Assembly (NCBI GenBank): GCA_964467905.1
Contig: CAYXSY010000003.1
Span: 30,159 to 94,158 of the forward strand
DNA from: an uncultured Planctomycetales bacterium
GTDB lineage: Bacteria > Omnitrophota > Gorgyraeia > Gygaellales > Profunditerraquicolaceae
Direction of reading: 5' to 3'
DNA length: 64,000 nucleotides
In this document: positions 1 through 46,181 of the stretch, one piece after another
How the letters are laid out: every line of letters begins with the position of its first letter
How positions within the stretch are numbered: the first letter of the stretch is position 1
Position numbers and translations under genes: made by a program
The notes under the pieces: model-generated
The model's input: the letters and a program-made list of their open reading frames with translations, nothing else
What the model was told of the DNA's origin: nothing
The model's database searches: none

Positions 1-1
1 G

Positions 2-574: not shown

Positions 575-594
575 AATCCAAGGAGGAGGATTGT

Positions 595-1641: not shown

Positions 1642-1659
1642 GGATAATTCCTACAGATT

Positions 1660-2163: not shown

Positions 2164-2170
2164 AATTATT

Positions 2171-3259: not shown

Positions 3260-3284
3260 TTATTTTTACATCAGAAAAGTAAGT

Positions 3285-4208: not shown

Positions 4209-4216
4209 ATATCCTT

Positions 4217-5530
4217 ATGGATTATAACCTAATAGTTTTAGGTGCAGGATGGGCAGGTTTCAACGCCGCTTTAATGGCAAAAAGATTTGGCTTAAAAGTT
4301 GCTATTTTAGAGGCAGAGAGCCTAGGTGGCACATGCTTAAATAGAGGGTGCATACCTACAAAAGCCTTGCTGCATAGTTCTAAGCTGTATTCTTCCTATC
4401 AAAAGTCATCTGAATTCGGCATACAGAATTCATCCCAGCCAAAAGTAGATTTTCCTGCAATACAACAGAGAAAAAATAAAGTAGTTTCCGGGCTTGCTTC
4501 GGGGATGCAGCATCTCTTATCAGGCATTGATTTTATCAAAGGATACGCCGAGCTTAGTTCCGAAACCAGCGTTAAGGTAGACGGTAAGCAGCTTACTTCA
4601 AATTTTATTCTAATAGCTACAGGGGCGCATCCCAGTGAACTTCCTTCATTAAGATTTGATAAAAATAAAGTTTTATCCAGCGACGAACTCTTAAATATAG
4701 AAACTATTCCGGATAAGCTTCTTATAATCGGCGGAGGTTTTATCGGATGTGAATTCGCCAGCCTATTTTCTGCTTTTGGTAGTAAGGTTGAGATAATCGA
4801 GAAAACACCGCAGCTTATTCCGGGAGAGGACGAAGAAGTCGCGAGAAAGCTGCAGAATATTTTCAAGAAAAAAGGTATTAAGGTGAATTTATCTGCCGAT
4901 TTATCTTCTTTTGATATTTCTGCATACGACAAGATTTTGGTTTCCGTCGGCAGGAGCCCGTTCATAAAAGGCTTAGGCCTGGAAAAGCTGGGGGTAGCTT
5001 TGAATGACAAGAAGGCCATAGTTGTCGATATTTACGGTAAGACAAATATCGAATCTATTTATGCAGCCGGAGATTGTACTGCTAAAATTATGCTTGCGCA
5101 TTATGCGGCTTATCAGGGTATTATTGCTGCAGAAAACATAGCTGCTTCAGAAAATAAGAAAGAGATGGATAATCAGGTTGTTCCGGTATGTATTTTTACC
5201 GATCCTGAGATTGCCAGCGTAGGCATGCGTGAAGCAGAAGCACGCAAGAATGGTATAGATATAGCTATTTACAAATTTGATTTCCGTGGTTTAGGTATGG
5301 CCCACATTATTGCCGAAACGGACGGTTTTATAAAGGTAATTTCTGAGGCAGAAAGTGGGTATATCTTAGGAGCTTTTATTATCGGCCCCCGGGTAACCGA
5401 ACTGATTGGCCTATTTTCGTTGGCAATCAGGGGAAAGCTTAAGATATCCCAATTAAGAGATACTATTTTTGCCCATCCTACTATATCAGAATGCATCCCC
5501 GAAGCAGTTCATAAAGAATATCCATTTTAA
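4217..5530 (+). CDS. lpdA: dihydrolipoyl dehydrogenase (E3)
   Basis: 437 aa. FAD motif GAGWAGF. Redox-active disulfide GGTCLNRGCIPTK. Second Rossmann motif GGGFIGCEF. C-terminal HAHPT. Confidence 0.8.
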   Translation: MDYNLIVLGAGWAGFNAALMAKRFGLKVAILEAESLGGTCLNRGCIPTKALLHSSKLYSSYQKSSEFGIQNSSQPKVDFPAIQQRKNKVVSGLASGMQHLLSGIDFIKGYAELSSETSVKVDGKQLTSNFILIATGAHPSELPSLRFDKNKVLSSDELLNIETIPDKLLIIGGGFIGCEFASLFSAFGSKVEIIEKTPQLIPGEDEEVARKLQNIFKKKGIKVNLSADLSSFDISAYDKILVSVGRSPFIKGLGLEKLGVALNDKKAIVVDIYGKTNIESIYAAGDCTAKIMLAHYAAYQGIIAAENIAASENKKEMDNQVVPVCIFTDPEIASVGMREAEARKNGIDIAIYKFDFRGLGMAHIIAETDGFIKVISEAESGYILGAFIIGPRVTELIGLFSLAIRGKLKISQLRDTIFAHPTISECIPEAVHKEYPF

Positions 5531-5569
5531 TAAACTTTTATCTTTGACTCAGATAATAAAGGAGGCTCT

Positions 5570-5806
5570 ATGTATAAGGTAATTCTACCGCCCCTCGGAG
5601 AAAATATTGAACAGGCCACAGTCTCGTATTGGTATTTTAAGAAAGGCGATAGGGTGAGGCTTAATGATGATTTAGTGGAACTATCCACTGATAAAGCAAC
5701 TTTTAATTTACCAAGCCCGGCGGCAGGCCTTATTGAAGAACTGTTTGTTAATGAAGGCGATACCGTTAAGGTCGGCGATGTATTGGCTTCTATAATTGAA
5801 GGGTGA
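5570..5806 (+). CDS. stand-alone lipoyl/biotinyl attachment domain protein
   Basis: 78 aa. Lipoyl-lysine context LSTDKATFNLPSPAAGLIEE, which is ETDKA-like. Confidence 0.5.
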   Translation: MYKVILPPLGENIEQATVSYWYFKKGDRVRLNDDLVELSTDKATFNLPSPAAGLIEELFVNEGDTVKVGDVLASIIEG

Positions 5807-6813
5807 TAATGATTAACCTGGGTTCGTTGAGGCTAAATTCAAAATTTATACTGGCTCCTATGGCCGGGGTAAGCGATTTGCCGTTTCGTATGCTTAACAG
5901 GGAATTCGGGGCGGAGCTTGCATTTGTCGAGATGATTAATTGTCGTTCGGTAAGTTATAACAGCAAAAAAACCAGGCAAATGCTTTCGACGCAGGATAAT
6001 GATAGGCCATTGGGTATCCAAATATTGGGCTCTGAGCCGAAATTTATAAGAAAGGCCTTGGACGTAATAAACACCTATGATTTTCAGCTTTTGGATTTTA
6101 ATGCCGCATGTCCAGCCAAGAAGGTTGTGCGCAGAAATGAAGGCGCTTCGCTTTTAAGAGATCCCAAGAAGCTTGATGAGATACTAAAGATAGTAGTAAG
6201 ATATTCTAAGGTTCCGGTTACTATCAAGATACGTTCGGGATGGGATAGAAATTCAATAAATGCCCCTGAAATTGCCAAGTTAGCTCAAGATTGTGGGGTT
6301 AGCGCTGTATTCTTGCATGGACGCACGAGGATGGATGGCTATAAGGGCGGGGTTGATTACGAAGTTATACGCAAAACAAAGGAATCAATTCATATTCCCC
6401 TTGTAGCTGGCGGAGATCTGATGTCTGTTGCTTCAGCGGTTAAGATGTTTGAGTATACAGGATGCGATCTCTTAAATATAGCAAGAGGCGCTTTGGGGAA
6501 TCCGTGGATTTTTAGAGAGTTAGAGTCTTTATCTTCATATCTACCATCGCAAAGTTATCCTTCAAGCGATGAAATATGCCGGGTTATGCGCAAGCATTTA
6601 GATATGTGCGTTAATTTTTATGGCGAAAAAATAGGCGTAGTTAATTTCCGTAAATTCTTTGGTTGGTATACTAAAGGTTTTAGAAGGGTGCGTTCTTTAA
6701 GAGAGAAGTCTTCTGTAGCTAAGACTAAAGAAGCCATGTTTTCTTTAATAGATGAGTGCGTTATGAATGAAGCAACAAAAAAACCCCATCTTCCTGGGGT
6801 TTTTTGTAGGTGA
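5803..6813 (+). CDS. dusB: tRNA-dihydrouridine synthase
   Basis: 336 aa. Motifs LAPMAGVSDLPFR and D.N..CP. TIM-barrel Dus family pattern. Confidence 0.8.
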   Translation: MIMINLGSLRLNSKFILAPMAGVSDLPFRMLNREFGAELAFVEMINCRSVSYNSKKTRQMLSTQDNDRPLGIQILGSEPKFIRKALDVINTYDFQLLDFNAACPAKKVVRRNEGASLLRDPKKLDEILKIVVRYSKVPVTIKIRSGWDRNSINAPEIAKLAQDCGVSAVFLHGRTRMDGYKGGVDYEVIRKTKESIHIPLVAGGDLMSVASAVKMFEYTGCDLLNIARGALGNPWIFRELESLSSYLPSQSYPSSDEICRVMRKHLDMCVNFYGEKIGVVNFRKFFGWYTKGFRRVRSLREKSSVAKTKEAMFSLIDECVMNEATKKPHLPGVFCR

Positions 6814-6919
6814 TAGGCCTTAATAGCTTTCGCTATCTGGCTACCTCCTTTGTTCTGTAATAAAAGTATGCCATATGGCTGAGCGTTTGTCAAGATGCCC
6901 AAAAATAAAAGAGGGGAAG

Positions 6920-7390
6920 ATGATTAAGAAGATAGCTCTGTTTTGTCTTATATTTATTATGCTGCATTCTTTTGCTTTTTGTGAAGTGTCGGTTAAGGCG
7001 GACGTCGATAAGCTTAAGGTTACTACCGATGAAGATATAACCTATAAAGTTACCGTTGTAAATTCGGGTAAGATTGTGCCTAAAATTAAGTTTCCCAAGT
7101 TTGAAGGTTTTAAGGTCGTATCGCAAGCTCAATCTTCGACGATATCTTTTGTAAAATCTAATGTAGAGACCATTCTCATTTATGCCTATATCCTTAGGCC
7201 TTTGGCTGCAGGTAAATATACAATTGGTCCTGTAGAGGCAGTAAATAATAATAAGACATATAAAAGTGATTCTTTTGAAATCGAAGTCTCACAAGGAAGC
7301 TCTTCGGACAGAAATACTCAAACTACCCCAGGGCTTAAGAAAAATCCATCTTTTGAGGGCAAGGAGGATAAGGATAAAATTACTCTCTAA
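6920..7390 (+). CDS. secreted protein with BatD-like N-terminal domain (weak assignment)
   Basis: Signal peptide MIKKIALFCLIFIMLHSFAF starts at the internal Met. The beta-rich domain is loosely BatD-like. The annotated upstream start at 6875 is less likely. Confidence 0.3.
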   Translation: MIKKIALFCLIFIMLHSFAFCEVSVKADVDKLKVTTDEDITYKVTVVNSGKIVPKIKFPKFEGFKVVSQAQSSTISFVKSNVETILIYAYILRPLAAGKYTIGPVEAVNNNKTYKSDSFEIEVSQGSSSDRNTQTTPGLKKNPSFEGKEDKDKITL

Positions 7391-7427: not shown

Positions 7428-7475
7428 ATGTTATACTTTTACAAATTTACATTACTATAAGGGAATAATATAGTT

Positions 7476-8051
7476 ATGAACGCAATAAAAGAGTTTAACT
7501 GGGTTGATGTATTAATTATAGCCCTTTTATTCAGAGTTTTATACGTTGCCGTGAAAAAAGGCTTTATTGTAGAGCTTTTTAAACTTCTCGGCACGCTTGT
7601 GGCTTTATATTTATCTTTACACTATTATGTCCAGCTTTCCGGCTTGCTTGTTAATTCTCCCGGGGTGCAAAATATGCCTGTTGAATTTGTTAATTTTCTT
7701 TCGTTCTCTTTTCTTGCCGGTATAGGATATGCGTTGTTTATGCTTTTGAGGCAAACAATATGCCACTTGTTAAAGATAGAAGCGTTAACTCAACTTGATA
7801 GGTGGGGAGGTTTGATTCTCGGCGTAGGAAGAGGGTTTTTATTGGTCGTGTTAATTTCATATCTCTTATTAATCTCTTCCATAGGGTACTTGGGCAGAAG
7901 CGTTTATAAGTCTTATCTCGGTAGCCGTTTCTTAAAAGCGGCTCCGGCAGTCTATTCTTTTCTTTGGAACGGAATTATGTCTAAATTTATGGGATCTGAG
8001 AAGATTAACCAGGCAGTTCAGGAAAATCTTGATAAGGAAGCGGCCAGATGA
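7476..8051 (+). CDS. cvpA: CvpA-family membrane protein (colicin V production protein family)
   Basis: 191 aa with four predicted TM helices. N-terminal NWVDVLIIALL pattern typical of CvpA. Confidence 0.6.
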   Translation: MNAIKEFNWVDVLIIALLFRVLYVAVKKGFIVELFKLLGTLVALYLSLHYYVQLSGLLVNSPGVQNMPVEFVNFLSFSFLAGIGYALFMLLRQTICHLLKIEALTQLDRWGGLILGVGRGFLLVVLISYLLLISSIGYLGRSVYKSYLGSRFLKAAPAVYSFLWNGIMSKFMGSEKINQAVQENLDKEAAR

Positions 8052-22440: not shown

Positions 22441-22512
22441 GGGCCCATAGCTCAGCGGTAGAGCAGGTGACTCATAATCACTTGGTCGGAGGTCCGATCC
22501 CTTCTGGGCCCA
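22441..22512 (+). tRNA. tRNA-Met (anticodon CAT; elongator-type or tRNA-Ile2-type, cannot be distinguished by eye)
   Basis: Manual cloverleaf: acceptor GGGCCCA/TGGGCCC, D-arm GCTC-AGCGGTA-GAGC, anticodon arm GGTGA-CTCATAA-TCACT, T-arm GGAGG-TCCGATC-CCTTC, discriminator A. No encoded CCA. Confidence 0.8.
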
Positions 22513-22582
22513 TTCTGTTCTAAAGGCAAGAGATAGCGGTACAGCTGTAAAGAAGTTCTTCCTGGTTTAGTAATTTTTACCG

Positions 22583-22656
22583 GGGCATTTAGCTCAGTTG
22601 GTTAGAGCGCTACATTCACATTGTAGAGGCCAGAGGTTCAAGTCCTCTAATGCCCA
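22583..22656 (+). tRNA. tRNA-Val (anticodon CAC)
   Basis: Manual cloverleaf: acceptor GGGCATT/AATGCCC, D-arm GCTC-AGTTGGTTA-GAGC, anticodon arm CTACA-TTCACAT-TGTAG, T-arm AGAGG-TTCAAGT-CCTCT. Confidence 0.8.
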
Positions 22657-23834: not shown

Positions 23835-23855
23835 TTTCTTAATTGTTCTTTTTTA

Positions 23856-24275
23856 GGTAAGCAGGATGTGACTGCCCCTGGACGTATTAGCCTGGGGGAG
23901 GAAAGTCCGAGCTCCATGGGGAACGTAATGGGTAATGCCCATCGCTTGGCGTAAGCCAAGTAGGATTTCCGTTGAGAATTATTCTCTGCGGATCCGTCAA
24001 TTATTTGGCGGAAGAGCTATAGAGACGAGTCTGCTTCTTAGAAGCAGGGTGGAACGAGCAATCTCTACGTGGAGTAAGGCCGAATAGGAGATGAGGACGC
24101 CCCGTCCGTTGCCTGTTTTATACAGGATCCCGTTAATGGGAAATAATCTCGGGTAGGCTGCTTGATCCTGGCGGAAACGCCAGGACTTAGAGGAATGGTC
24201 ACTAGGGCGCTAATTTGATTGCCTGCCTGATAAGCAGGTAGGCATCTAGACAGAACTCGGCTTAACCTGCTTACC
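23856..24275 (+). ncRNA. rnpB: RNase P RNA (bacterial type A)
   Basis: P1 helix GGTAAGCAGG...CCTGCTTACC. Conserved GGAGGAAAGTCCGAGCTCC (P4 5' strand). 3' region matches the ACAGAACTCGGCTTA P4 3' strand. T-run follows. Confidence 0.8.
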
Positions 24276-24356
24276 TTTTTAATTTAAAAACATAAATAAA
24301 CGCTGCTAAGTATTTCGGTAGAGTATCTTTTAACATAATAATCAAGGAGGTATGAA

Positions 24357-35141: not shown

Positions 35142-35950
35142 ACCTTACATTACCTTGAAATATTTATATTTATATTGGATACTTTAATTGCCAGAGAGCA
35201 TTAGTAATCCGAACGGTTTCTTAGGATCCCTCATCCCTCTGCTTATATTAGCTTTGGGTAAACAGCCACGGAAGGATAGGGGGTGAGCCGGGTTACTGAA
35301 GATATGAGATGATTTTATAACTTGGTAACCCGGCGCTTTATTTAGAAAGAAGGTCTTAGACATGCGCGATTTACTTTTTAAGAATCTTACTTCAGGAGAC
35401 AGAAAAAGAAGAGTGGTATCGAGCTCTGAAATAACCGATAAGAAGGGGATTCACAGTGTTATCCGGCGTCATTTTATATGCCTGATTAAGGAGGTCAAAA
35501 GCGAAAGCCAAACATGTAAACCGTCACCCTCAATCCAGGTTTTAAGAGAAAGGGATAGCAAAACAAAACTCGATAGATTTTCTTGCCGGATAAAGGGTAG
35601 CGTGTATGCATCTTCCGGCGAGAGATTATTTTTAATACTATTTATGCATTCTTTGAAAATAACCTTAACACCCAAGACAAAAAACAGCCCTGTATATGAT
35701 ATAAGCAAATCTTGACAAGGGGGTGGAAGGAAGGTATACTTTATTAAAACTTTTAAAAATTAATTTATAATCCGCTAGCTTCGGTATTCTGGAGGAGTGC
35801 CGAAGGTGCCACGGAGATTTTAAAGCCGGATTGACGAAAGACGGGTCAGCCGGCTTTTTTTATTTTTTTAGGCAGCTTGTCTTAAGTGATAGAAATAAAT
35901 TGACATAGGGTAAAAATAGAGCTATATTAACCCCTAAAGATAGGGGGTGG

Positions 35951-37369
35951 GTGATGAAAAAAATATTAAAAGTCCATTTAATCCTGATTCTGTTGCTAGT
36001 TGTCGGAATAGGCCATGTTTATTCTGCGGCAACAAGCATAACGGCTACGCCTGTTACTTCGGGAAATGAGCTTAATTTCCAAGTCAACCCCGGTATAGCT
36101 CCCAATCCTTGCGAAGTCAGAATAAGAACATTTGGAACCACTGGTAGGTATGAGATTAGGCAGGAACTTCTAATGGCTCCTTCAAGCGGCGCCAATCAGA
36201 TTGACTGGCGGTATTTTTCTATGCGCGCTTTAAGAGAATCGCCTAGCGTCAGAGGTACATTACATGCTGCTCAAGATACACCTTTCCCCTTAAATGCTTT
36301 CAATCCTTTATATACAAATACAGCCGGAACATCGGATAGTTTTGTTTTGGTTTATTACGTAAGTTTACCGGCCAATATTCAGCCCGGATCATACCGCGGA
36401 AGAATCCGGTATACGCTCGCGCCAATGCAGGCGGCAGATCAGCAATCATACGCATTTCTTAATGTTTTAGTTAATGTCGGACAAAGTACGCTAACAAGCG
36501 TACAGAAACCACAGATAGAGATAACTCCGATTGACGCTTCAAGTGTCATATCTTTAAATCCAACCAGAGAAGATAAAGCCTCGGCTGATGTGGAATTCAG
36601 AATGAATGTCAAGCCGAACAGTTTATTCAGTATCACGCAGGTCGCCAGAGATCCGATTATGTCCTCAAGCGGTGCGACACTTGATGACAGTGTTATTAAT
36701 TTTAAGACCCAGAATATTAGGGCAGGCATGGGGGTAGCCGATAAAGGCCTGTCTTCTGTACCTAAAAAGATTTTTACTTCCGGTCCAGGAGGACAGTGCC
36801 CGGATAGTTTTGTATTGACTTATAGCTTAGGCGATATGTCAGGTTATAAGGCCGGACGCTATAGAACAAAAATCCAGTATTATCTTGATCAATCCGGCAA
36901 ACCGATGACTTTAATAAAAACTTTGGATATACAAATTGAAGTAGAGAGCATATTTGAGTTAACCATAACCCCCCAAGACCAGAAGGGGATCTTAGAATTC
37001 CGTGATATTAAATCCGGTGATGAGCCTAAAACCAGCGAAATTGTTATTGAAGCAAAAACTAACACCGGCAAACAGTATCAGGTTAATCAAAACGTATATT
37101 CAAGCCTGACTAATAAATCCGGAGATGCGATATCTAATGACTACTTTTTTATTAAAACTGATAAAGCTGACGGAAAGAAATTATCAGGTGCTTTGAAGTA
37201 TCCGAATATGGAAAAGGTAAAAACAGGAGATTCAACTTTGTTTATCTCTGATATTAAAGGAAGCCCGGCGGCATTCAAAGTTATCTATAAATTGGATTTA
37301 CCCAGAGAAGTAAATATTACAAGTGGAGACTACTCAACGCGCATTACTTATTCACTTTCAGAAATATAA
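35951..37369 (+). CDS. secreted fimbrial-subunit-like protein (large; candidate tip/adhesin subunit)
   Basis: 472 aa. Signal peptide. Beta-rich. C-terminal GDYSTRITYSL resembles a donor-strand/penultimate-Tyr pilin C-terminus. Confidence 0.35.
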   Translation: MMKKILKVHLILILLLVVGIGHVYSAATSITATPVTSGNELNFQVNPGIAPNPCEVRIRTFGTTGRYEIRQELLMAPSSGANQIDWRYFSMRALRESPSVRGTLHAAQDTPFPLNAFNPLYTNTAGTSDSFVLVYYVSLPANIQPGSYRGRIRYTLAPMQAADQQSYAFLNVLVNVGQSTLTSVQKPQIEITPIDASSVISLNPTREDKASADVEFRMNVKPNSLFSITQVARDPIMSSSGATLDDSVINFKTQNIRAGMGVADKGLSSVPKKIFTSGPGGQCPDSFVLTYSLGDMSGYKAGRYRTKIQYYLDQSGKPMTLIKTLDIQIEVESIFELTITPQDQKGILEFRDIKSGDEPKTSEIVIEAKTNTGKQYQVNQNVYSSLTNKSGDAISNDYFFIKTDKADGKKLSGALKYPNMEKVKTGDSTLFISDIKGSPAAFKVIYKLDLPREVNITSGDYSTRITYSLSEI

Positions 37370-37393
37370 ACTTTTTTAGAAGGGAGGATTTAA

Positions 37394-38134
37394 ATGACTA
37401 ACAAAAACAAACTTAAAAATAAAAATACGAAAGGGGGTGAAAAAATGAAAACATTGAGATTACTTATATCGTTAACCGTGCTTTTAATGGGTGTATCGAG
37501 CCTTGCTCTTGCCGCTACTTCACAGCAGATTACAATTAAAGCTACAGTTCCGGCTCCTGGGGTAAGCTTGCCTACAACCAAGACCATCATAAAATGCCCC
37601 GGTACCATGCCTGCATCTGGCGATCCCTGGTCGTATCCCGGCTGCGTTAAGGATTTAACCGAGATTAACTTTGGGACACTGACAAACGTACTTACCGACG
37701 GATCAAACGCGGGTTGTTTTTACGCTCCAGATTACTTTATAGTTTATCTTTATCCTGATGTTTGGGGTGGGATAGGTTATGAGGTAAAACAAAGCTTTGC
37801 ATGGGCAGGTACAGGTTTGCCTTCTAATTCGCTGGTATTCACAGCTGTGTATAGCAACGATGACCATTATGATGGTAAACCGGCACAAGGTCCTAAACCT
37901 ACAGGCGCTACCTTAGGCAACAATGGTAATTCGCAAGCTGCAACAGGAGGAGCAAAAACAGTTTATAAGAGCGAGAAACCGGGAGAACCGCGTATCTTTC
38001 GCGCTCAATACGGACTGCCTCCTTATCCAGCTGCAGGAGAAGCTGATCCGTTTGCAGGTTGGGCACCGGTTCCTGTAACACAGGCACAAGGTACCTATAC
38101 CGGTACATTAACCCTTACTATAAGCTCTTACTAA
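37394..38134 (+). CDS. secreted pilin-like subunit (candidate major subunit)
   Basis: Signal peptide (MKTLRLLISLTVLLMGVSSLALA; an alternative start at 37445 is possible). Two Cys near the N-terminus. C-terminus AQGTYTGTLTLTISSY has a G..Y.GT.T.T..Y pattern typical of chaperone-usher pilins. Confidence 0.4.
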   Translation: MTNKNKLKNKNTKGGEKMKTLRLLISLTVLLMGVSSLALAATSQQITIKATVPAPGVSLPTTKTIIKCPGTMPASGDPWSYPGCVKDLTEINFGTLTNVLTDGSNAGCFYAPDYFIVYLYPDVWGGIGYEVKQSFAWAGTGLPSNSLVFTAVYSNDDHYDGKPAQGPKPTGATLGNNGNSQAATGGAKTVYKSEKPGEPRIFRAQYGLPPYPAAGEADPFAGWAPVPVTQAQGTYTGTLTLTISSY

Positions 38135-38328
38135 ACGAAATTATTTAGTTAAGGGCTTATAGTGTTTATTGGAGGATTCGGCCTTATTAGGTCCGGTAGT
38201 GGGTGGGGTCGTCCGTTTGCCGGATTCTAATCTTGCGATTTGCTTATTTTTTATAAAGCATATCGCAGGCGATAAAGCGGTTAAATAGTAATTAGCCGCA
38301 GTATATAATTTTTGGAGGGAAGGGAGAA

Positions 38329-39219
38329 GTGTTGCCAAAATATATTAAGTATTTATTTTTGTTTTTTTTATGTTTTTATTCATCTTTAACTACAGCCTAT
38401 GCTGCACATTTTAGCCTGGACCAAGCCAAGGTAAGGCTAGTTATCCCGCCCGGAGGCTCCCAAACAGGTACGATAAGAATTGATAATATCTCGGGAGATA
38501 ACCTCGATATCCGTGTTTATTGGGAAGATTGGGCTTATGCGCAAGGCAATAACGGCTCAAAAGATTTCCTGGCTTCTAACAGCACTAGTTATAGTGCGGC
38601 AAAATTTGTTACTTTCTCTCCGGCAGAATTCGTTATACCTCCGTTTGGAAGACAAATTGTAAATTATGTAGTTAGGCTTCCCGATGATGCACAAGGCGGC
38701 TATTACGGCGTGTTATTTTTTGAAAGCACGCTCGGTAAATATATTTCTTCTACGGGCTCAGACACTACGGAAAGACAGGCAGGCATAGATGTGGCTTTAA
38801 GAATGGCTTCGCTCTTCTATATAGAGACTAAAGGTAAAAATGAACGTAAGGCCGAAATAAATAATCTTACAATTTCAGGTAATAAAGAAGGCGCACCGCT
38901 TTTAATACAGGCAGACTTTTTAAATTCAGGAGACGTTGATCTAACCTCCGGAGGTTCATTTAATATTATGGACAATAAGGGCATGGTTTATGCCAGGGGC
39001 AAATTCAACGATATCTATACTTTGCCTAAAGATAAAGCTAAGTTGAATGCGGAATGGAAAGACGGGATTCCTCAAGGAACATATTCTCTTGTTGCTACTT
39101 TCGATATCGGGAAAGCTCAAGAGGAAGCCGGACTAAATAGGGGGCCGGTAATTGTTAAGGAGGCGAAGATACAAATAGGACCGGCAGGCGAAGTCATTTC
39201 AGTGCGTCCACTGGATTAA
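38329..39219 (+). CDS. PapD-like periplasmic pilus chaperone (tentative)
   Basis: 296 aa. Signal peptide with GTG start and RBS. RLVIPPGGSQTGTIRIDNISGDNLDIRVYWEDW matches the chaperone N-domain pattern (R.v...........N.......W). C-terminal Ig-like domain. Confidence 0.4.
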   Translation: MLPKYIKYLFLFFLCFYSSLTTAYAAHFSLDQAKVRLVIPPGGSQTGTIRIDNISGDNLDIRVYWEDWAYAQGNNGSKDFLASNSTSYSAAKFVTFSPAEFVIPPFGRQIVNYVVRLPDDAQGGYYGVLFFESTLGKYISSTGSDTTERQAGIDVALRMASLFYIETKGKNERKAEINNLTISGNKEGAPLLIQADFLNSGDVDLTSGGSFNIMDNKGMVYARGKFNDIYTLPKDKAKLNAEWKDGIPQGTYSLVATFDIGKAQEEAGLNRGPVIVKEAKIQIGPAGEVISVRPLD

Positions 39220-39220
39220 A

Positions 39221-42001
39221 ATGAAAAAAATCCTGTGCGTTTTTATATCCATTTTTATAGTCCTAAATTTCAAACCGCTATTTGCTTCCAGTCAAATACC
39301 GGCTTATTTATGCGAGCTTGGTATAAAATTCTACCAGGAAGGCAGATACACCGATGCCTTGACTGAATTCAAAAAAGCCCTGGTTGTAAAACCGGGGTAT
39401 GAGCCGGCCCTAAGGTATATTCAGATGATTGAAGGCTCTGGTCCAGAATCTTACGATTCCTCGTTAATCCCACCTGAGTACAAGCCGGAATCTTCTAATT
39501 CTTCAGAGGCAGCTGCAGAAATCATGGATTTAATCAAGCTCCAGAAAGAAATGATTGGACAGAGAAAAAATCTTTCTGAGAGTAGCGCTATCAGCCCTCT
39601 TTCTGCGTCCGGACAGGCTCACTTTGAACAACCTGCTATATTAAATTTAGACGCTTCATTTAAAAATATCAACCAGCCGATACAGATAGAACAAGGCAAA
39701 ACCATACTTATATTCGGCAATAACATACAAAGATACCTGGCAACCAACCCGGATGTACTTGATATAAACAGGAAAGGTCCGGATAACTTAGAAGTAACCG
39801 GTAGAGAAGTGGGGTACTCTTATTTGCATATATGGGATAATGACGGCAGGTGGACTGCGGAATTCTTGAATGTTTATCCGCAGCCGGATATCGAGTCTTA
39901 CGATGAGCTTATGCGCAAGGAAAAAGAAAAAGCACGCAATTTCAAATTTCTCTACACTATGGACTGGTCTTCTTTTTACCTAGGCAGAAGGATATATGAT
40001 ATAGAAAGAACTAATTACAGCTGGACGCGCAATCTCATATTAACCGGACAGACGCCTTATGGTAATTTTGACGCTAAAACAGTTATACGTACAGTAGATA
40101 GCACCACAGACCTTACGTATTTTACTATGGGTTTAAGCGATGGCGTATTCGCACAATTCAAAGGATTTGATTTAAGAGGTTTTGATTATTCTCCGAATTT
40201 TGCTAATCTTATTTTACCCGGAGCTACCTTAAGAGGTTTTATGATGTCTTCTCCGGCATTTAATAATAAACTCGATTATACCGTATTCTGGGGGCAGGAA
40301 GGAGGCGGTAGATACGGCAACCTCTCGCCATCGTTAGAAGAATCCAAAGACTCATATTTAAACGGTATCAACTTAAGTTTTAGTCCTACCACAAAACAAA
40401 ACTACAAATTTACTTTCTCGCAGGGCTACGGTGACGATAGGGACAATTATCTTAATAGTCATGGCTACGATGCTTCCGGTAATTGGCACGTGGGAGATTT
40501 TGATTTTAATTATGAGGTGGCAAATGACTCCCAGACCTTCGCCCATGTTTTTAGGACTAATTACGCTATGCCTAAATTAAATCTGGAATTTGAATTTCGT
40601 GACATTAATGAAGAATTCATGAATATGACCGGTTATGGTTGGCGCCAGGGTGAATTCGGCTATAACGTAGGTTTTACGTATATGCCTACCGATAAATTAC
40701 GTATATCCAATATTCTTAATGTTTACCGTGACCGTCTCTATCCTGCCGAAGATAAGCCTGACCGCTGGAATGAAGATGATACATTAAGTATCCTTTATCA
40801 GGTTGACCCCCTGACATCAATAAACGCAAATTATACTTTAGAAAATGACCTTGGGAGGTTGTCTCAATATCGTTATCAAAATGCAGCTGCCGGTATATCA
40901 AAGACTTTCCAGATTTTAAGTAAAGATATAGGTACTTATCTTAACTACAATCATCAGGAAAGTAAAAACTATCAAGCCCATTCTCTGGATTATGTTGATG
41001 ATAGGTTAATAGCCGGGCTGCGCTTCAGCCTGATCGGCGATTTGTATTACTATGTGAGTAAAGAAATAAATTATTTGGATGCCAAAGAAACTGGAATCAT
41101 AACACACCCCAACGCCCTTGAAACAGGCGTTGACTGGTCAGGACAATTCGGTCAAACCCCTTTATACGGATCTTTTAGGTTTACATACAGGGACGAAGAA
41201 GATACCATTTCTCCTTTAAGTTTTTTATCAGGCGAGGATTATATTGAAGGATACACCGAATTATCATATAAGCCTACTGATGATGCGGAGGTTTATGCAT
41301 CATGCAGAGGGCGCAATGTGTGGGCGGATAACCCCAACGTTACGAAGCGTTTTGAAATGGATTTCAGGGCGGGATTGCGCTATCTCTGGGATACAGGTTT
41401 TCACTGGGATGCAATAGGCAATGTCGAGGGGTATGTCTTCAGGGATATTAACGGCGATGGCTTAAGACAGCGCGATGATCCTCCTATGCAAGGGGTTAAG
41501 TTATGGTTGGGCAAAGATAAATCTACGGTAACAGATGAATTCGGTTACTTCAAATTTGTCGGTATCAAAGCCGCAAAGGCTTATGTTACACTAGAAGCTT
41601 CTTCGTTACCGGCAGGTTTTGTTTTAACTGTTCCTGCCAGCCAGGAAGCTGTAATTATCCACCATCGGACATGTAGGGTAAATTTCGGTGTTATTTCGCG
41701 CTCAGAAATTACAGGTTATGTCTTTGATGATTCAAACGGAAATTCAATATTTAATCCGAATGAAAAAGGAATTAAGGGGGTTGTCGTATCTCTAGAAAAC
41801 GGCAAGAAGGCAATCACTGATGGTTCCGGTAAATATATCTTCCCCAACGTATCCACAGGAAAACACACGATATCAGTGGATATCAATACCATTCCGATAG
41901 ATTACCTACCTAAGACGGCAGTGCAGAAAGAAATCGATTTGTTTGAAGGAATAACTTATATTTACAATGTCCCCCTCAAAAAAATAGAGGACCAGCAATA
42001 A
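39221..42001 (+). CDS. outer-membrane usher-like assembly protein with N-terminal TPR, CpaC/RcpA-type pilus-N domain, large beta-barrel region and C-terminal CarboxypepD_reg/Cna-B-like repeats
   Basis: 926 aa. Signal peptide. TPR (YLCELGIKFYQEGRYTDALTEFKKAL). Segment QIEQGKTILIFGNNIQRYLATNPDVLDINRKGPDNLEVTGREVGYSYLHIWDNDG matches the T2SS/T3SS pilus-formation N-region pattern. About 500 aa of Y/G/N/D-rich alternating beta-strands. Two GYVF(R/D)D.NG(D/N) repeats at the C-terminus. Confidence 0.4.
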   Translation: MKKILCVFISIFIVLNFKPLFASSQIPAYLCELGIKFYQEGRYTDALTEFKKALVVKPGYEPALRYIQMIEGSGPESYDSSLIPPEYKPESSNSSEAAAEIMDLIKLQKEMIGQRKNLSESSAISPLSASGQAHFEQPAILNLDASFKNINQPIQIEQGKTILIFGNNIQRYLATNPDVLDINRKGPDNLEVTGREVGYSYLHIWDNDGRWTAEFLNVYPQPDIESYDELMRKEKEKARNFKFLYTMDWSSFYLGRRIYDIERTNYSWTRNLILTGQTPYGNFDAKTVIRTVDSTTDLTYFTMGLSDGVFAQFKGFDLRGFDYSPNFANLILPGATLRGFMMSSPAFNNKLDYTVFWGQEGGGRYGNLSPSLEESKDSYLNGINLSFSPTTKQNYKFTFSQGYGDDRDNYLNSHGYDASGNWHVGDFDFNYEVANDSQTFAHVFRTNYAMPKLNLEFEFRDINEEFMNMTGYGWRQGEFGYNVGFTYMPTDKLRISNILNVYRDRLYPAEDKPDRWNEDDTLSILYQVDPLTSINANYTLENDLGRLSQYRYQNAAAGISKTFQILSKDIGTYLNYNHQESKNYQAHSLDYVDDRLIAGLRFSLIGDLYYYVSKEINYLDAKETGIITHPNALETGVDWSGQFGQTPLYGSFRFTYRDEEDTISPLSFLSGEDYIEGYTELSYKPTDDAEVYASCRGRNVWADNPNVTKRFEMDFRAGLRYLWDTGFHWDAIGNVEGYVFRDINGDGLRQRDDPPMQGVKLWLGKDKSTVTDEFGYFKFVGIKAAKAYVTLEASSLPAGFVLTVPASQEAVIIHHRTCRVNFGVISRSEITGYVFDDSNGNSIFNPNEKGIKGVVVSLENGKKAITDGSGKYIFPNVSTGKHTISVDINTIPIDYLPKTAVQKEIDLFEGITYIYNVPLKKIEDQQ

Positions 42002-42005
42002 AGAG

Positions 42006-42332
42006 CTAACGGTTGTATACGGTCTGTAACATTACGCCCTTTTGCGTATCGTTCTTTACTAAACGGTCTTCTTGAATTTGAACATTCTGGTTACCGCCGG
42101 TTTTTATATCTTCTTTTCCTTCATGCTTAATTTTAGCTTCCGGTTTGATGGCTGAGGTTTTGTCATTTAGCGGAACATTAAGTCCTGGGATAGCAGGTAT
42201 AGTACAAGAGACCGGAATACTTATCCTCTGTTCGGCAAAAGCCTCGCCGGCTAAACAGCATGCCAAAATCACGCCCAATATCAGCCTTATTGTCATTTTC
42301 ATGGCACACCTCCTTAAAAAAGTATGAACCAT
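42006..42332 (-). CDS. small secreted hypothetical protein
   Basis: 108 aa. Signal peptide MKMTIRLILGVILACCLAGEAFA. Confidence 0.35.
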   Translation of the reverse strand: MVHTFLRRCAMKMTIRLILGVILACCLAGEAFAEQRISIPVSCTIPAIPGLNVPLNDKTSAIKPEAKIKHEGKEDIKTGGNQNVQIQEDRLVKNDTQKGVMLQTVYNR

Positions 42333-42349
42333 CCCGTGGCAGGTGGGGA

Positions 42350-42598
42350 TTATCTTCTCAAGCTTATCATTAATTCCCTTAATCTATTCTCAAAATCATC
42401 TTCGGATTTTAGCCCTTCGCCGTTTAAATGGAGATGCTCCGCAAAATCAACAAGCCAAGATATAAGTTTAGCCCTGGAAATCTTAGCTCCCGTAGAAAAT
42501 AGAGCATCCTTACCCAGTTTGTCCAGAAAATCAACTTCTTCACGGTTAAGAAAAGTAACGACCCGTTCTTTTTGCTCCATTATGTTTTTCATGTCCAT
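42350..42598 (-). CDS. small hypothetical protein (possible ribbon-helix-helix-like regulator)
   Basis: Start moved to the internal Met (MDMKNIMEQKERVVTFLNREEVDFLDKLG) because the first 11 annotated codons overlap a terminator hairpin. Confidence 0.3.
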   Translation of the reverse strand: MDMKNIMEQKERVVTFLNREEVDFLDKLGKDALFSTGAKISRAKLISWLVDFAEHLHLNGEGLKSEDDFENRLRELMISLRR

Positions 42599-42950
42599 CA
42601 CCTTTCTTCCAATAAAAAAGCCCCAGAGCATATCTGCTTGGGGCGCAAGGTTTCTGCGTATCCTTTTTGCGTAAGATGCGTGTATTCTAAAGGATAAGCG
42701 TTATTAAACAAAAAACCCTAAAGGCATCTTTAGGGTTTTAACCTATGGCAACCCCTCTATCCTTAGTAAGGACAGGTAGCTTTGCGTCCTAGCATTACTG
42801 CTAGTTTGCCTTTTTCAATAAGTACTTTAAATTGTCAAGAAACTGTATCTTACCGTCAATTAGAGTATAGCATACAATTTAGCAATTTTCAAGGGTGGCA
42901 TTTTGTTCTTTTGTAAATTTACACTCTTCTGATGCCCAGGAGGGGATATA

Positions 42951-45900
42951 TTAATACAAGTATATTTCTATTTCCTTAATCTGGCAGGACCTTATCTGTT
43001 CGCAGTAAGGAGATGGTATTATGTCGGAGCGCAGAATGATGTCTTTTCCGTCTTTATCCTTAAAACATATTTTATTAATCTTTACGGCGGACTTGCCGAA
43101 CGTATCTTTGCGCTTAGGGTTATGATAAGTTACCGTAATATGCTTCAAGAATTTAAACCGGTACAAGCCTTTTTTATCAAAAAACCAGGAAGCCAGAATG
43201 GGGGTGAATTTTAAATTAAGCTGTTTTTTAGCATCAAGGGAGAATGGTTTCGCTCCGATATTCATAATCAACCAGATATTAATGAATTCTATTGTGGACC
43301 CGGAAAGACGGGCTACGTATCCGTTACCGTGGAGTCTTTCGTCAGGGAAAGCGCTTGATACCAGAAAGCTTGAGTTTTCTATAATGCTGCGGCCGTATTT
43401 TTTGGGGTTAAGAAACGGTATAAAGATATTCTTGAAGTCTGCATAGAATTCTTCATATAACCCATTCTTTATGAGCTCGAGCATATATTTATATTCCATA
43501 TGCAGCCATATCGATTCGTTTTCAAGCCATCCCGGAGTAAAAGCAGTGCATCTGCCGATTTCCTGGGGCATATTCTTTAAAGAAGCAGTAACTTTATACA
43601 TACGTAGTTTCTTATCAAAGAGTCCGCTGCTTTTTGTAGCCTGATATATCGATTTTGCCATTTTTAAATCTTTTGCCAACCTTAAGGCATGCACCTGGCC
43701 TTCTAAGAATAGAGGGAGCTTTTGTTGAGAGAAAGAAACAGGAAAGACATGTTCGCTGCCAATTTTTTTATGTTCGTTAACCTGGTTTATAAAATAAGCA
43801 GTGTAGAGACTTTTATTCTTATCTTTGGCTTTAAGTATCGCTGCGTCTATTCTTTTGATTGAGTCTGCAATTATAGTTGATAATTCCGTCAAGCTAACTT
43901 CCAGGCCCTCTCCGCTGAAGCCAAGTTTTGTTTTTAAACGGTATTCTTCTTTTAAGGTAGTAGCCTTATCCCAATACCAATATTCTTTCTCTGCTGAATT
44001 ATCCTGCAGATACTCCTTAACTAACCGATGAAGAGAGAAGAGGAGCTCACCAATTTCACGCGTAACATCTATTTTGTTTCTGTCAGTCATACCGATACAA
44101 TCTTTTATAAATATAGCTAATCTTTTAAGCTCAATGGTTTCGCAAGAAGATGAGCCAAACATTGCAGGTAAGCCGTTTAAAGCATCGTACCAGTTTGGTT
44201 TATCTGATTCCATCTCTATACCGCATCCGCAAGGATCGATAGACGAGAGTTTATTTACAAAAATACAGAGCAGTTTATCCATAAGGGTTGTCTGATAAAT
44301 GCTGCCCTTACCGTACTGTGCTCTTAAAACATGGGGCAATTCCTGTCTTTTATGGATAAGTTCTTTCTTTTCTGCATCCTGGGCAACTGAGTGTAGTTGT
44401 TGAATACGCCCGTTTCTGATTACATATTTCACAGCGCGCGGCCGTACTACTTCCGTATTGTCAAAAAACGTGAATACCGGTTTGTCAAACACAAGTTTTT
44501 CTAACTTTTCAGGATAAAGAGCGCGATAGTTTTCTAAGAGATCAAGATTATAATGCCAGTGGTCTATCCAGAAACCTTCGCCGTGTTCGGCTTCCTGTAT
44601 TTTAGCCGAATGCGACAGAAGTATATTGATAAAATCACTATGAGATGATCTGGGTGTTATTTTTGACTCCTGCAGAAATAACGCTATTTCACCGGGAGTA
44701 AAAATGCGCCCACCGATATGCGATATTATGCTCTCCAGGTCTTTTTGGCTAAGAATCACCGATAAGCTTCTCTTAAGCTCATCTGTGGCTACTATTTTAT
44801 ATGATACGCCCTTAACTACTAACGGATTGAATCCGTCTGCCTGAATTAAATTCATAAAACTAATAATATTTTCATCGCCAATTTCCGGATTAAACCATAT
44901 GTCGCAGCGTCTATTTTGGTTGACATCGCGGTAATTGCCGTTTCCTTGAGAGAAATACGTCGGCTGTATCTGGAATTTATTGTAATCTCTTTCCAGATCT
45001 CCGTGCTTGCGGGAGTATAGATAGAATACCGAATTAGAGGTTTTTGTCTTAAAAATAACAGGGTACCCGCCGCGCAAAATATTATCTAAATAAGTTTGTT
45101 TAATGTATAGGTTAAGATTCGGAGCGTTACTGTATGTCTCTACGTCCGAGAGAAGAGAAGAGATAATCTGGCGGTTTTCATTCTTCTTGCGGCTAAGGTA
45201 CTGCGCATCTGCTATTCTTGGTATTGACAAATTAAGCGCATCCTGGCTGCGCATATATCCTATTATCGCATAGAAATTCTTGGTTTCTTTTGGCTTGAGG
45301 CCAGCGTTTAAATATAGAAAACCGCAAGGTGTCTTGCTGCAAATAGTCTCATTCTTTGGAGGCGTAAAATTGTCGCATGATAAAAAGTTAATAGGATAAG
45401 AAAAATCGGTATTCTGGCCAAAGACATTCTCAGGATCAATTAAAGGCTTAATAATCTTAAGCCTGCTGTTTTCATAATGGAACCCTAAATAAAAATTGCC
45501 TTCTTTGATATGCAACACTTCCGGCCTATCCGTAGGATCAACCCCGAGCTTATAAAAAGGGACTCCTTTGTCAAGATTGTCAACCTTCATCCAGGCCTCT
45601 ATGGTACGGCTGAGTTTCTTTAAAAACAGGTTTGCGGTGCCAAAAGGCACTATTTGAGGCAGGCCATCTAAGATTTCAATATCTATCTTTTTGGCCCCGG
45701 TATTTTCTATGGAAACTATTCTTGCTAATCCCGCATAACTATCTTGCGGAATGGTAAAATACTCGACTTTTATTTTTAATTTTAAAGTTTTATTTTCTTC
45801 TTCGATTTTTAGAGAAACCGCATCGGAAGACATGCTATTGGTAATATCAAAAGGGCTATTGGCAAAATCATTATGAAAAGGTTCATAAACAGCTGTGCGT

Positions 45901-46181
45901 CCGTTCTTGATTTTAATAAAGGTACGAAAACCCCTGCGAGAAGCAAGCTGCCAGGCTTTATTTGCGGGAAAAAACTCCAATATCGAGTGGTCTTTATCTT
46001 TTGTCCCGAAACTGACTATGCCTTGTGCCCTGTTGACATAAAAAGCCCATAAAGGAATACCATATTCTCCTGAAATCCCGGGGAAGAAATTGGCTAATGG
46101 TTTGGCAAAATTATAGTTTTGGATTATAAATTCGCCACCAGAGGTAAGTCTATATGAAGGTTTTTTAATTTTTTTATTCAT
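42951..46181 (-). CDS. large glycoside hydrolase/phosphorylase-like protein ((alpha/alpha)6-barrel, GH94/GH65-like superfamily; tentative)
   Basis: 1076 aa. N-terminal FPGISGEYGIPLWAFYVNRAQG pattern resembles phosphorylase-type beta-sandwich N-domains. No signal peptide. The only long minus-strand gene in the window. Confidence 0.3.
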   Translation of the reverse strand: MNKKIKKPSYRLTSGGEFIIQNYNFAKPLANFFPGISGEYGIPLWAFYVNRAQGIVSFGTKDKDHSILEFFPANKAWQLASRRGFRTFIKIKNGRTAVYEPFHNDFANSPFDITNSMSSDAVSLKIEEENKTLKLKIKVEYFTIPQDSYAGLARIVSIENTGAKKIDIEILDGLPQIVPFGTANLFLKKLSRTIEAWMKVDNLDKGVPFYKLGVDPTDRPEVLHIKEGNFYLGFHYENSRLKIIKPLIDPENVFGQNTDFSYPINFLSCDNFTPPKNETICSKTPCGFLYLNAGLKPKETKNFYAIIGYMRSQDALNLSIPRIADAQYLSRKKNENRQIISSLLSDVETYSNAPNLNLYIKQTYLDNILRGGYPVIFKTKTSNSVFYLYSRKHGDLERDYNKFQIQPTYFSQGNGNYRDVNQNRRCDIWFNPEIGDENIISFMNLIQADGFNPLVVKGVSYKIVATDELKRSLSVILSQKDLESIISHIGGRIFTPGEIALFLQESKITPRSSHSDFINILLSHSAKIQEAEHGEGFWIDHWHYNLDLLENYRALYPEKLEKLVFDKPVFTFFDNTEVVRPRAVKYVIRNGRIQQLHSVAQDAEKKELIHKRQELPHVLRAQYGKGSIYQTTLMDKLLCIFVNKLSSIDPCGCGIEMESDKPNWYDALNGLPAMFGSSSCETIELKRLAIFIKDCIGMTDRNKIDVTREIGELLFSLHRLVKEYLQDNSAEKEYWYWDKATTLKEEYRLKTKLGFSGEGLEVSLTELSTIIADSIKRIDAAILKAKDKNKSLYTAYFINQVNEHKKIGSEHVFPVSFSQQKLPLFLEGQVHALRLAKDLKMAKSIYQATKSSGLFDKKLRMYKVTASLKNMPQEIGRCTAFTPGWLENESIWLHMEYKYMLELIKNGLYEEFYADFKNIFIPFLNPKKYGRSIIENSSFLVSSAFPDERLHGNGYVARLSGSTIEFINIWLIMNIGAKPFSLDAKKQLNLKFTPILASWFFDKKGLYRFKFLKHITVTYHNPKRKDTFGKSAVKINKICFKDKDGKDIILRSDIIPSPYCEQIRSCQIKEIEIYLY

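Follow-up and report, generated by a model that had tools for sequence, protein, structure and literature searches.

A putative cyclic di-GMP-regulated surface-fibre locus of chaperone-usher-like design in Omnitrophota

The DNA analysed here is a stretch of 64,000 nucleotides (the window, to which coordinates refer unless another locus is named) from an uncultured Planctomycetales bacterium that GTDB places in the Omnitrophota (assembly GCA_964467905.1, contig CAYXSY010000003.1, positions 30,159 to 94,158; G+C content about 40%), and the system in question is a locus built around four consecutive plus-strand genes, S1, S2, CH and US. Their coding sequences run from 35951 to 37369, 37394 to 38134, 38329 to 39219 and 39221 to 42001, and encode proteins of 472, 246, 296 and 926 amino acids, each with a signal peptide of the typical kind at its N-terminus, as read from the sequence. 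A first-pass annotation of the same DNA had described four consecutive secreted proteins at this place, which the open reading frames (ORFs) and signal peptides confirm, and had likened them to the two subunits, the chaperone and the usher of an archaic chaperone-usher system. Two further genes and a riboswitch, which it missed, lie on the minus strand at 42006-42892 and are all part of the system. Pfam and NCBIfam scans of six proteins matched no chaperone-usher family, and the locus belongs to none of these families as they are defined by sequence, yet it is best read as a novel chaperone-usher-type assembly variant.

The conservation of the locus was analysed in a comparison set of 82 sequences, namely the window and 81 loci fetched via the CH family (79 from GTDB species genomes and two from metagenomes, referred to below by L numbers), with ORFs assigned to families by iteratively built hidden Markov models (HMMs). 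All four families, S1, S2, CH and US, occur together in 62 of the 82 sequences, so that the gene order on which the first-pass annotation drew is indeed a conserved one. Strict S1-S2-CH-US adjacency is found in 45 sequences, and most of the remaining cases are contigs that end inside the locus. This recurrence of gene order in dozens of species-level genomes is far beyond chance; the genomes include the complete one of Candidatus Velamenicoccus archaeovorus (L069). The cluster of the window, like that of about one third of the loci with enough flanking sequence, is bordered by lepA-lepB-pgsA-plsY on one side and by a gene for a conserved orphan protein of about 1080 amino acids on the other, and with such flanks it has the look of a core part of the chromosome and not of a mobile island. 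Eight loci carry the S2-CH pair two or three times, and further loci have additional S2 copies. The joint duplication of S2 and CH implies that the S2 protein binds CH.

S1 (35951..37369), the proposed tip or first subunit, is made up of three tandem S2-like beta domains, as seen in three matches between the S2 and S1 profiles by hhalign (95.3%, 86.6% and 94.8%). Each domain ends on a strand of the form G-x-Y-x-x-x-I-x-[YF]-x-L, and the C-terminus itself reads G-x-Y...I-x-Y-S-L; the resemblance that the first-pass annotation had seen between the ends of the 472- and 246-residue proteins extends to every S1 domain end. Behind this strand, domains 1 and 2 have a loop of some 7-11 residues (in most homologs 6-8), and one extra strand of alternating hydrophobic residues comes next. 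There are exactly two such extra strands in S1, both at domain junctions, with none at the mature N-terminus and none after domain 3. The first (AFLNVLVNV, amino acids 168-176, 36452..36478) is the proposed cis G-strand of domain 1, and aligns with the N-terminal strand of S2 (hhalign) and with the CfaB donor strand VEKNITVTASVDP (hmmsearch). The second (LIKTLDIQIEV, amino acids 322-331, 36914..36943) is the proposed cis G-strand of domain 2, and aligns with the second donor-strand copy in PDB entry 3f83, an engineered, donor-strand-complemented fusion of CfaE and CfaB. That fusion is the sole match of the S1 profile among 177,635 PDB sequences, at a marginal E-value (E) of 0.037, and the alignment is collinear twice over: F-strand falls on F-strand, the loop on the DNKQ linker and the extra strand on VEKNITVTASVDP, after which the next domain follows.

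S2 (37394..38134) is a small, secreted, single-domain protein and the proposed polymerising subunit. Alignment with homologs suggests that its start is probably Met18 (nucleotide 37445), which would give a precursor of about 229 amino acids. There are 147 S2-class ORFs in the 82 sequences, including the short SM class described below, often with several copies per locus. Right after the signal-peptide cleavage site comes a strand, AATSQQITIKATV (amino acids 40-52, 37511..37549), that is proposed to be the donor strand; its pattern [IV]-x-[VI]-x-A-x-[VI]-P is kept in the alignment, as is an invariant F further on in x-x-F-G-T-L, and it is the sole part of S2 that aligns with the N-terminal donor strands of FimA and CfaB (hhalign). 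The C-terminal strand, GTYTGTLTLTISSY (38090..38131), is proposed to be the F-strand beside an open groove. Its motif reads G-x-Y-x-G-T-[VI]-T-[LIF]-T-[LI], with 1-4 variable residues behind it, and is kept in the 60 S2 C-termini that were listed (out of 101 S2-class proteins), at each domain end of S1, and in L089 and L090, two distant loci. The first-pass annotation had called this end the classic C-terminal strand of donor-strand-complemented pilins; the string is there and the motif is conserved, but the terminal Tyr that was counted as part of it is not.

Beyond these strands, a profile search of 5.8 billion proteins found 29 relatives of S2, all of them unannotated Omnitrophota proteins, with no bridge to known pilins, and the S2 profile had no match in the PDB. 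Pfam scans for the Fimbrial (PF00419) and SCPU (PF05229) families gave no match to S1, S2 or 57 S2 relatives, and the only Pfam match among these 57 was a weak one to DUF4402 in six. When S1 and S2 were compared by hhalign with 14 E. coli pilins and five class-5 pilins, the alignments covered terminal strands only. The spacer between S2 and CH (38135-38328, plus strand) is 194 nucleotides long and moderately structured, with several hairpins (minimum free energy -61 kcal/mol, z -2.8); a terminator scan found no canonical terminator after S2 in it, and the spacer may set the stoichiometry of subunit to machinery.

The third protein of this group, SM (42006..42332, minus strand), is encoded convergently with US. 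This small secreted protein has a signal peptide and a near-invariant strand (S-I-x-V-S-C-T-I-P-A-I-P-G-V-N-A-P), from which a polar linker that varies leads to a conserved T-x-Y-x-R at the C-terminus, and it matches the S2 HMM at positions 1-50 only. SM is found in 43 of the 70 US-containing loci. Because it would bring a donor strand only, and accept no further subunit, SM is proposed to be the terminator or anchor of a fibre. Residue C43 of SM is near-invariant (V-S-C-T-I-P), with alanine at that site in S2, and no partner cysteine or lipobox is evident. The strand arithmetic of the subunits, with three domains and two junction strands in S1, one strand plus one domain in S2 and nothing after the last strand, fits donor-strand exchange, in which S1 would be a natural, cis-complemented tip.

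CH (38329..39219) is the proposed chaperone; it is periplasmic and has two Ig-like domains of the PapD-like or WxLIP (WxL-interacting protein) type. The AlphaFold2 model (51 homologs; mean predicted local distance difference test score, pLDDT, 89.6) consists of two beta domains with one disordered loop before a long strand. The loop (amino acids 138-150, pLDDT below 50) and the confidently modelled strand behind it (GIDVALRMASLFY, amino acids 155-167; 38740..38829 together with the loop) are proposed to be the F1-G1 loop and the donor strand G1, and the region aligns with the G1 region of EcpB, FimC and CfaA. At the start of this strand stands R158, which is near-invariant even in distant relatives and does not fall exactly on Lys112, the basic cleft residue that accompanies Arg8 in PapD; a second near-invariant arginine, R36, aligns with the cleft residue Arg8 of FimC (hhalign). 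In a Foldseek search of the PDB the best matches of the CH model were the Enterococcus faecium WxL-interacting protein structures 9i1y and 9i25 (E about 1e-12; 8e-13 for the WxLIP match), followed by ASH/PapD-like domains and then by many genuine chaperone-usher chaperones (CfaA, YadV, CupB2, EcpB, FimC, CsuC, Caf1M and FaeE, E 1e-8 to 5e-7); among these the highest TM-score, 0.62 on the target, belongs to CfaA.

The sequence of CH points in the same two directions. EcpB is the best PDB sequence match of the CH profile (hmmsearch, E 5.6e-4), and hhalign aligned CH with a profile of eight E. coli (FimC-type) chaperones at 81% (E 1.2e-5, 174 columns, both domains) and with one of five class-5 (CfaA-type) chaperones at 90% (E 1.5e-6, 135 columns). 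These matches suggest relatedness at the level of the superfamily, not membership in the PapD family; the Pfam and NCBIfam scan of CH returned only fn3_5 at E 0.066, with no PapD_N or PapD_C (PF00345, PF02753) at E<=1. The first-pass annotation had likened the N-domain of the 296-residue protein to PapD/CsuC-type chaperones, and the likeness is borne out by the two-domain fold, the Foldseek matches and the hhalign scores, although the Pfam models that it had named for the purpose, Pili_assembly_N/C, gave no match at E<=1. A profile search of 1.84 billion representatives yielded 11,830 relatives of CH. Among 50 of the more distant ones that were listed, 19 match WxLIP_PGBD (PF06030, formerly DUF916), six match WxLIP_HBD (PF11797, formerly DUF3324) and none matches PapD_N or PapD_C. 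Six tandem (double) relatives lie above the gathering score of WxLIP_PGBD (up to 44.7 versus 27.3 bits) and match the CH profile at about 1e-50. CH is thus a protein of predicted PapD-like fold whose closest named family is WxLIP.

The WxLIP family brings with it a precedent for the loop of CH. In AlphaFold2 predictions reported by Hassan and Williamson (PMC10599100), a disordered loop of WxLIP turns into a strand parallel to one of WxL, whose sandwich is thereby completed. This behaviour amounts to donor-strand complementation without the name; chaperone, usher and donor strand are nowhere mentioned in that paper, nor were they in the WxLIP literature searched, and a search of the literature on WxL together with strand complementation returned nothing on the present system.

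The same relationship raises the alternative that the locus encodes a static WxL-type complex in a diderm, with CH permanently strand-bound to S1 and S2, with US doing no more than exporting or anchoring the heterodimers, and with no polymer being formed. Such a complex would account for CH being closest to WxLIP by both structure and sequence, for the joint duplication of S2 and CH, and for a gene content that is typical of WxL clusters, namely a small subunit, a large one of several domains that shares its C-terminal domain, and a single WxLIP-like protein (PMC10599100). However, CH ends in ...GEVISVRPLD and has no C-terminal hydrophobic helix, whereas WxLIP is anchored by a transmembrane helix at this end. 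Neither S1 nor S2 nor the 57 S2 relatives matched Pfam WxL (PF13731), the subunits have no WxL motifs, and the S2 profile drew no match from the PDB, although 9i25 includes a WxL chain; the locus, moreover, belongs to a diderm and includes an outer-membrane component. In the missing helix, the missing WxL domains and the diderm host, the locus fails the definition of a WxL cluster. To our knowledge, WxLIP occurs only in Gram-positive bacteria, and we know of no WxL system that polymerises. A static complex would also leave unexplained why S2 has an extra N-terminal strand that S1 lacks and why a strand-only SM is conserved, and it would require a two-domain chaperone to pass through the barrel on each subunit. 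We consider this alternative, the main rival, unlikely.

US (39221..42001) is an outer-membrane protein and the proposed usher analogue. Its signal peptide is followed by a TPR-like helical region (amino acids 20-73), a helix (94-119), a secretin-type N domain (139-218), a barrel of about 26 strands (242-724; 39944..41392) and two beta sandwiches resembling SdrD_B/CarboxypepD_reg (732-921). The barrel was delimited by DSSP on the AlphaFold2 model (pLDDT 82.5), which has 26 consecutive strands and no inserted domain or plug. Pfam finds a TPR motif, T2SS-T3SS_pil_N at amino acids 154-212 and two SdrD_B/CarboxypepD_reg-like domains at 724-926, and has no match for the central 480 residues. In a Foldseek search of the PDB, ranks 1-12 are all full-length FimD or PapC (E 1.8e-19 to 5.8e-12, about 800 columns), and the next class, a TonB-dependent receptor at 3.3e-9, follows at a distance of more than two orders of magnitude. 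US has at least 120 homologs, all of Omnitrophota type. The Pfam and NCBIfam scan found no Usher, PapC_N or PapC_C (PF00577, PF13954, PF13953) and no Secretin domain, and ushers are absent among the PDB matches of the US profile. US would therefore be an usher analogue, or an usher diverged beyond recognition; it is not a member of the family. The first-pass annotation had put the 926-residue protein in the usher position, and its outer-membrane barrel, its periplasmic beta domains and FimD/PapC as its nearest structures all agree with this, but membership in Pfam Usher, sequence homology and the plug do not.

Some properties of US would also suit a set of neighbours without a shared machine, in which US would serve as a porin of general type or, as a channel related to secretins, another pilus (Tad) or a polysaccharide, and S1 and S2 would be unrelated surface or periplasmic proteins. 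T2SS-T3SS_pil_N is typical of the CpaC/RcpA secretins and stands here with a TPR motif; NCBI names the protein a 'pilus assembly protein N-terminal domain-containing protein'; and the barrel, taken alone, resembles that of FimD no more closely than it does porins or TonB-dependent receptors. We find this highly improbable, since gene order and adjacency are kept in 45-62 genomes and into another phylum, the copy numbers of CH and of the subunits co-vary, the locus contains no Tad or type IV genes, and US is without a Secretin domain.

The control region of the system lies on the minus strand. In order, it comprises a promoter-like site (TTGAAA-17-TATACT with extended TG, 42864..42892), a c-di-GMP-I-GGC riboswitch aptamer (RF03167, 42743..42819; 66.4 bits versus a gathering score of 59, E 2e-14) and a terminator-like hairpin of the intrinsic type, with 12 bp and a U-run (42712..42739), which is proposed to be the expression platform. 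From a possible GGGGUU:AACCCU antiterminator, the riboswitch may be an OFF switch. Between the riboswitch and SM lies R (42350..42631, minus strand), which encodes a highly conserved cytoplasmic protein of about 80 amino acids (QRVVTFLNRxEVDFLDKLGKDALFS...); R and SM appear to be co-transcribed behind the riboswitch. R is present in 26 sequences (the window and 25 loci), with 19 invariant columns in the 17 sequences aligned. Judged by eye, it may be a regulator of the ribbon-helix-helix type; as a candidate for a known regulator family it found no match in Pfam or the PDB.

The riboswitch is present in most loci. Rfam models detected one in all seven other loci tested (the GGC variant in six, at 59.6-70.2 bits, and the parent c-di-GMP-I class in the seventh), and a covariance model built from eight copies gave 72 matches in the 82 sequences. 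It stands mostly ahead of R-SM, but in some loci it is directly upstream of S2 (L078, L065, L080, L072, L053, L059 and L038) or of S1 (L004, L043, L013 and L032). Three loci have tandem aptamers of the c-di-GMP type ahead of R-SM on the minus strand (L037, 14399-14646; L049, 12731-12988; L061, 14420-14615), and at equivalent or additional positions L022 and L004 have the parent c-di-GMP-I class in place of the GGC variant. In the literature on the c-di-GMP-I-GGC variant that was searched, no link to this gene cluster or to a strand-only secreted protein was found. Adhesins and pili are often under c-di-GMP signalling, and the present system, with its riboswitch and with a PilZ-domain gene in L002, likewise appears to be embedded in it.

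In our judgement the locus probably encodes a c-di-GMP-regulated assembly system for a surface fibre (an adhesin), which would work in the manner of a chaperone-usher system with different or very divergent parts; our confidence in a donor-strand mechanism for it is moderate. The model that follows builds on gene content, synteny, the predicted folds of CH and US, the arithmetic of domains and strands, and the riboswitch. S1, S2, CH, US and SM, all with signal peptides, would be exported by Sec. In the periplasm, the strand at amino acids 155-167 of CH would enter the open groove of S2 and of the last S1 domain, both of which end on an F-like strand with no strand to follow and so would leave a groove open to CH. 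US would serve as outer-membrane pore and assembly platform. S1, its domains joined by cis 'G' strands and lacking an N-terminal donor strand, would go first, as the tip, and the S2 subunits would then be added one by one, the CH strand in each giving way to the N-terminal strand of the S2 that follows. SM, a donor strand with a tail, would cap the last groove and thereby terminate or anchor the fibre. With R-SM lying behind a c-di-GMP-I-GGC riboswitch and an intrinsic terminator, and with the same riboswitch ahead of S2 or S1 in other loci, the production or the length of the fibre would be tied to the level of the second messenger.

Several results weigh against this model. Its central step, strand exchange between subunits that would lack a G-strand, is deduced from the logic of the sequences, and the similarities to pilins (E 0.037 for S1; 38% and 74% probability by hhalign for the S2 strand, over 17-22 columns that include the end of the signal peptide) are marginal, being consistent with a donor-strand model and short of proof. 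Profile comparison of US with ushers was null (hhalign 1.0% against six E. coli ushers and 0.4% against five class-5 ushers), and on these grounds US was rejected as a diverged true member of the usher family. The barrel of ushers has 24 strands, and a plug domain sits between the sixth and the seventh of them, whereas the US model has about 26 strands and no plug. When the FimD barrel alone (3ohn) is compared with US, the match (E 5.8e-9) is no better than that of TonB-dependent receptors, so that the specific likeness to ushers would sit in the layout of N domain, barrel and two C-terminal sandwiches. In the minimal locus L090, described below, the US-like protein consists of the N domain and barrel only, the C-terminal domains being absent, and distant CH-like proteins are paired with secretins, which export pre-assembled cargo. 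WxLIP proteins, the nearest relatives of CH, form static complexes and not polymers. Finally, a search of the literature on Omnitrophota found no report of such a fibre on cells.

Among known chaperone-usher systems, the nearest type is the alternate or class-5 one (CFA/I, CfaABCE; ECP, EcpA-E) and not Csu. The two have in common a chaperone of two Ig domains, a barrel in the outer membrane flanked by periplasmic domains, one major subunit and a tip subunit built of several domains, and CfaA gives the best TM-score, EcpB the best PDB sequence match and the class-5 profile the higher hhalign score with CH, to which the S1 match to 3f83 and the alignment of the S2 strand with CfaB may be added. 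The two chaperones of ECP also parallel the duplicated S2-CH pairs. On the other side, the components of our locus belong to none of the Pfam families concerned; US is unlike CfaC-type ushers in profile, strand number, plug and secretin-type N domain; S1 and S2 align with class-5 pilins at their terminal strands only; the S1 tip is three tandem subunit-like domains in place of an adhesin and a pilin domain; and neither the strand-only SM nor riboswitch control has a counterpart there.

The original proposal, that of true but strongly diverged membership in the archaic (sigma, Csu-like) family of chaperone-usher systems, draws on the order subunit-subunit-chaperone-usher, on a C-terminal G-x-Y-x-G-T-x-T-x-T strand like that of Csu/SCPU loci, and on the presence of CsuC among the structural matches of CH; like Csu and CupE, moreover, the locus has the logic of a thin fibre. 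However, SCPU, Usher, PapC_N/C, Pili_assembly and Fimbrial all lack a match at E<=1 in the members scanned, the comparison of US with usher profiles is null and its barrel has the wrong number of strands and no plug, and the best chaperones are of the class-5/alternate type (hhalign 90% versus 81%). True archaic membership is accordingly given very little credence, and the functional intuition of the first-pass annotation was largely right while its family assignment was wrong.

Distant relatives throw light on the history of the fibre system. A metagenome-assembled genome of Margulisbacteria (L090) has what looks like a minimal version, with an S2-like protein, a tip-like single-domain protein, a CH-like protein and a US-like protein of 587 amino acids (E 3.8e-29), which ends in GGVTYIF-COOH, a typical beta-signal. 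The S2-like protein and its tip-like paralogue differ by one N-terminal strand, which the tip-like protein lacks. In L088 (139-2987) and L089 (5726-11454), tandem CH-like proteins of 519-531 amino acids, above the WxLIP_PGBD threshold, are encoded by genes that overlap the start of a secretin gene (PF00263), and in L089 three small secreted proteins ending in PGxYxG..TVT precede the tandem protein. These two loci appear to be a sister system with a secretin in place of the barrel. Together with the minimal version, such secretin-paired loci suggest that the subunit-chaperone module is older and broader than its US partner. A bolder reading is that the locus represents a distinct, ancient donor-strand lineage extending from Omnitrophota to Margulisbacteria, with a WxLIP-type chaperone that would pass strand-deficient subunits to an independently evolved 'usher' (plug-less and of about 26 strands) or to a secretin, and with a riboswitch-controlled, strand-only terminator. 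On this reading WxL clusters and chaperone-usher pili would be linked in evolution, and a phylum thought to be limited to type IV and Tad pili would gain a third type of pilus; we offer it tentatively, as a possibility that falls short of the probable.

The region upstream of S1 had been described as an 840-bp non-coding leader. There is indeed a gap of 841 bp behind the plsY-like gene, but it is not wholly non-coding, for it holds an ORF, X (35362..35715, plus strand), that encodes a conserved cytoplasmic protein of 117 amino acids with no signal peptide. Homologs of X occur in 17 other loci; in 15 of them the gene is 50-670 bp upstream of S1, and in the other two (L017 and L038) it is 2-3 kb upstream, just before an extra S2-CH pair. 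The family is 109-121 amino acids long, with the consensus MRDLLFKNLTSxDKKRR...RRHF...FFCRIKGS...LILFMHSLKI, and X had no match in Pfam or the PDB. In L002 a PilZ gene takes the place of X upstream of S1, which prompted the idea that X might be a PilZ protein; neither Pfam nor the PDB lends it support. A consensus scan found two promoter-like sites on the plus strand with 11 of 12 matches each, one at 35900..35928 (TTGACA-17-TATATT), 23 nucleotides upstream of S1, and one at 35712-35740; the number of such sites around the S1 leader does not exceed the expectation from shuffled sequence, so they are weak evidence. No riboswitch was found in the S1 leader of the window at E<=1, whereas other loci have one there.

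Some further observations concern the surroundings of the locus. Just past the riboswitch promoter, and divergent from the S1-US operon, the window encodes a 1,076-residue protein with no Pfam domain (42951-46181, minus strand), which is found at the same position in 18 of the 43 loci with enough flank. The cluster of L002, which has three S2-CH pairs, is directly 3' of a giant ORF (1-7343; more than 7,727 amino acids, cut by the contig end) and the PilZ-domain gene (7439-7786). In L091 a '23S rRNA intervening sequence protein' gene (PF05635, 8922-9275) lies between CH and US, and a 1,261-residue HEAT-like protein is encoded between subunit genes. Many genomes with an Omnitrophota-type locus (L004, L009, L011, L015, L044, L050 and others) bear the names 'uncultured Planctomycetales/Planctomycetia', 'Elusimicrobia', 'Margulisiibacteriota' or 'Clostridia' in their records, and these submitter labels are probably at odds with the gene content. 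Elsewhere in the window, the plus strand at 22441-22656 and 23855-24280 carries genes for ordinary housekeeping RNAs, two of them for tRNAs and one for a class A RNase P RNA of bacterial type (150.9 bits).

Chaperone-usher machines build adhesive fibres on Gram-negative bacteria, and the Omnitrophota, which are abundant and ultra-small, probably depend on hosts or live as predators. Attachment in this phylum has been attributed to type IVa pili, Tad pili and giant proteins (PMC10066038), and the Omnitrophota literature searched, including the Velamenicoccus proteome, contains these and nothing on the present system. If our interpretation is correct, a phylum-wide, c-di-GMP-controlled fibre would be a new candidate for attachment to host or prey. 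Donor-strand complementation would then extend past the chaperone-usher families defined by Pfam, and the WxLIP proteins of Gram-positive bacteria would be relatives of pilus chaperones. The outer-membrane partner would be interchangeable, either a monomeric barrel or a secretin. Finally, S1, whose domains would be linked in cis, and SM as a strand-only protein would provide simple handles on the initiation and termination of a fibre.

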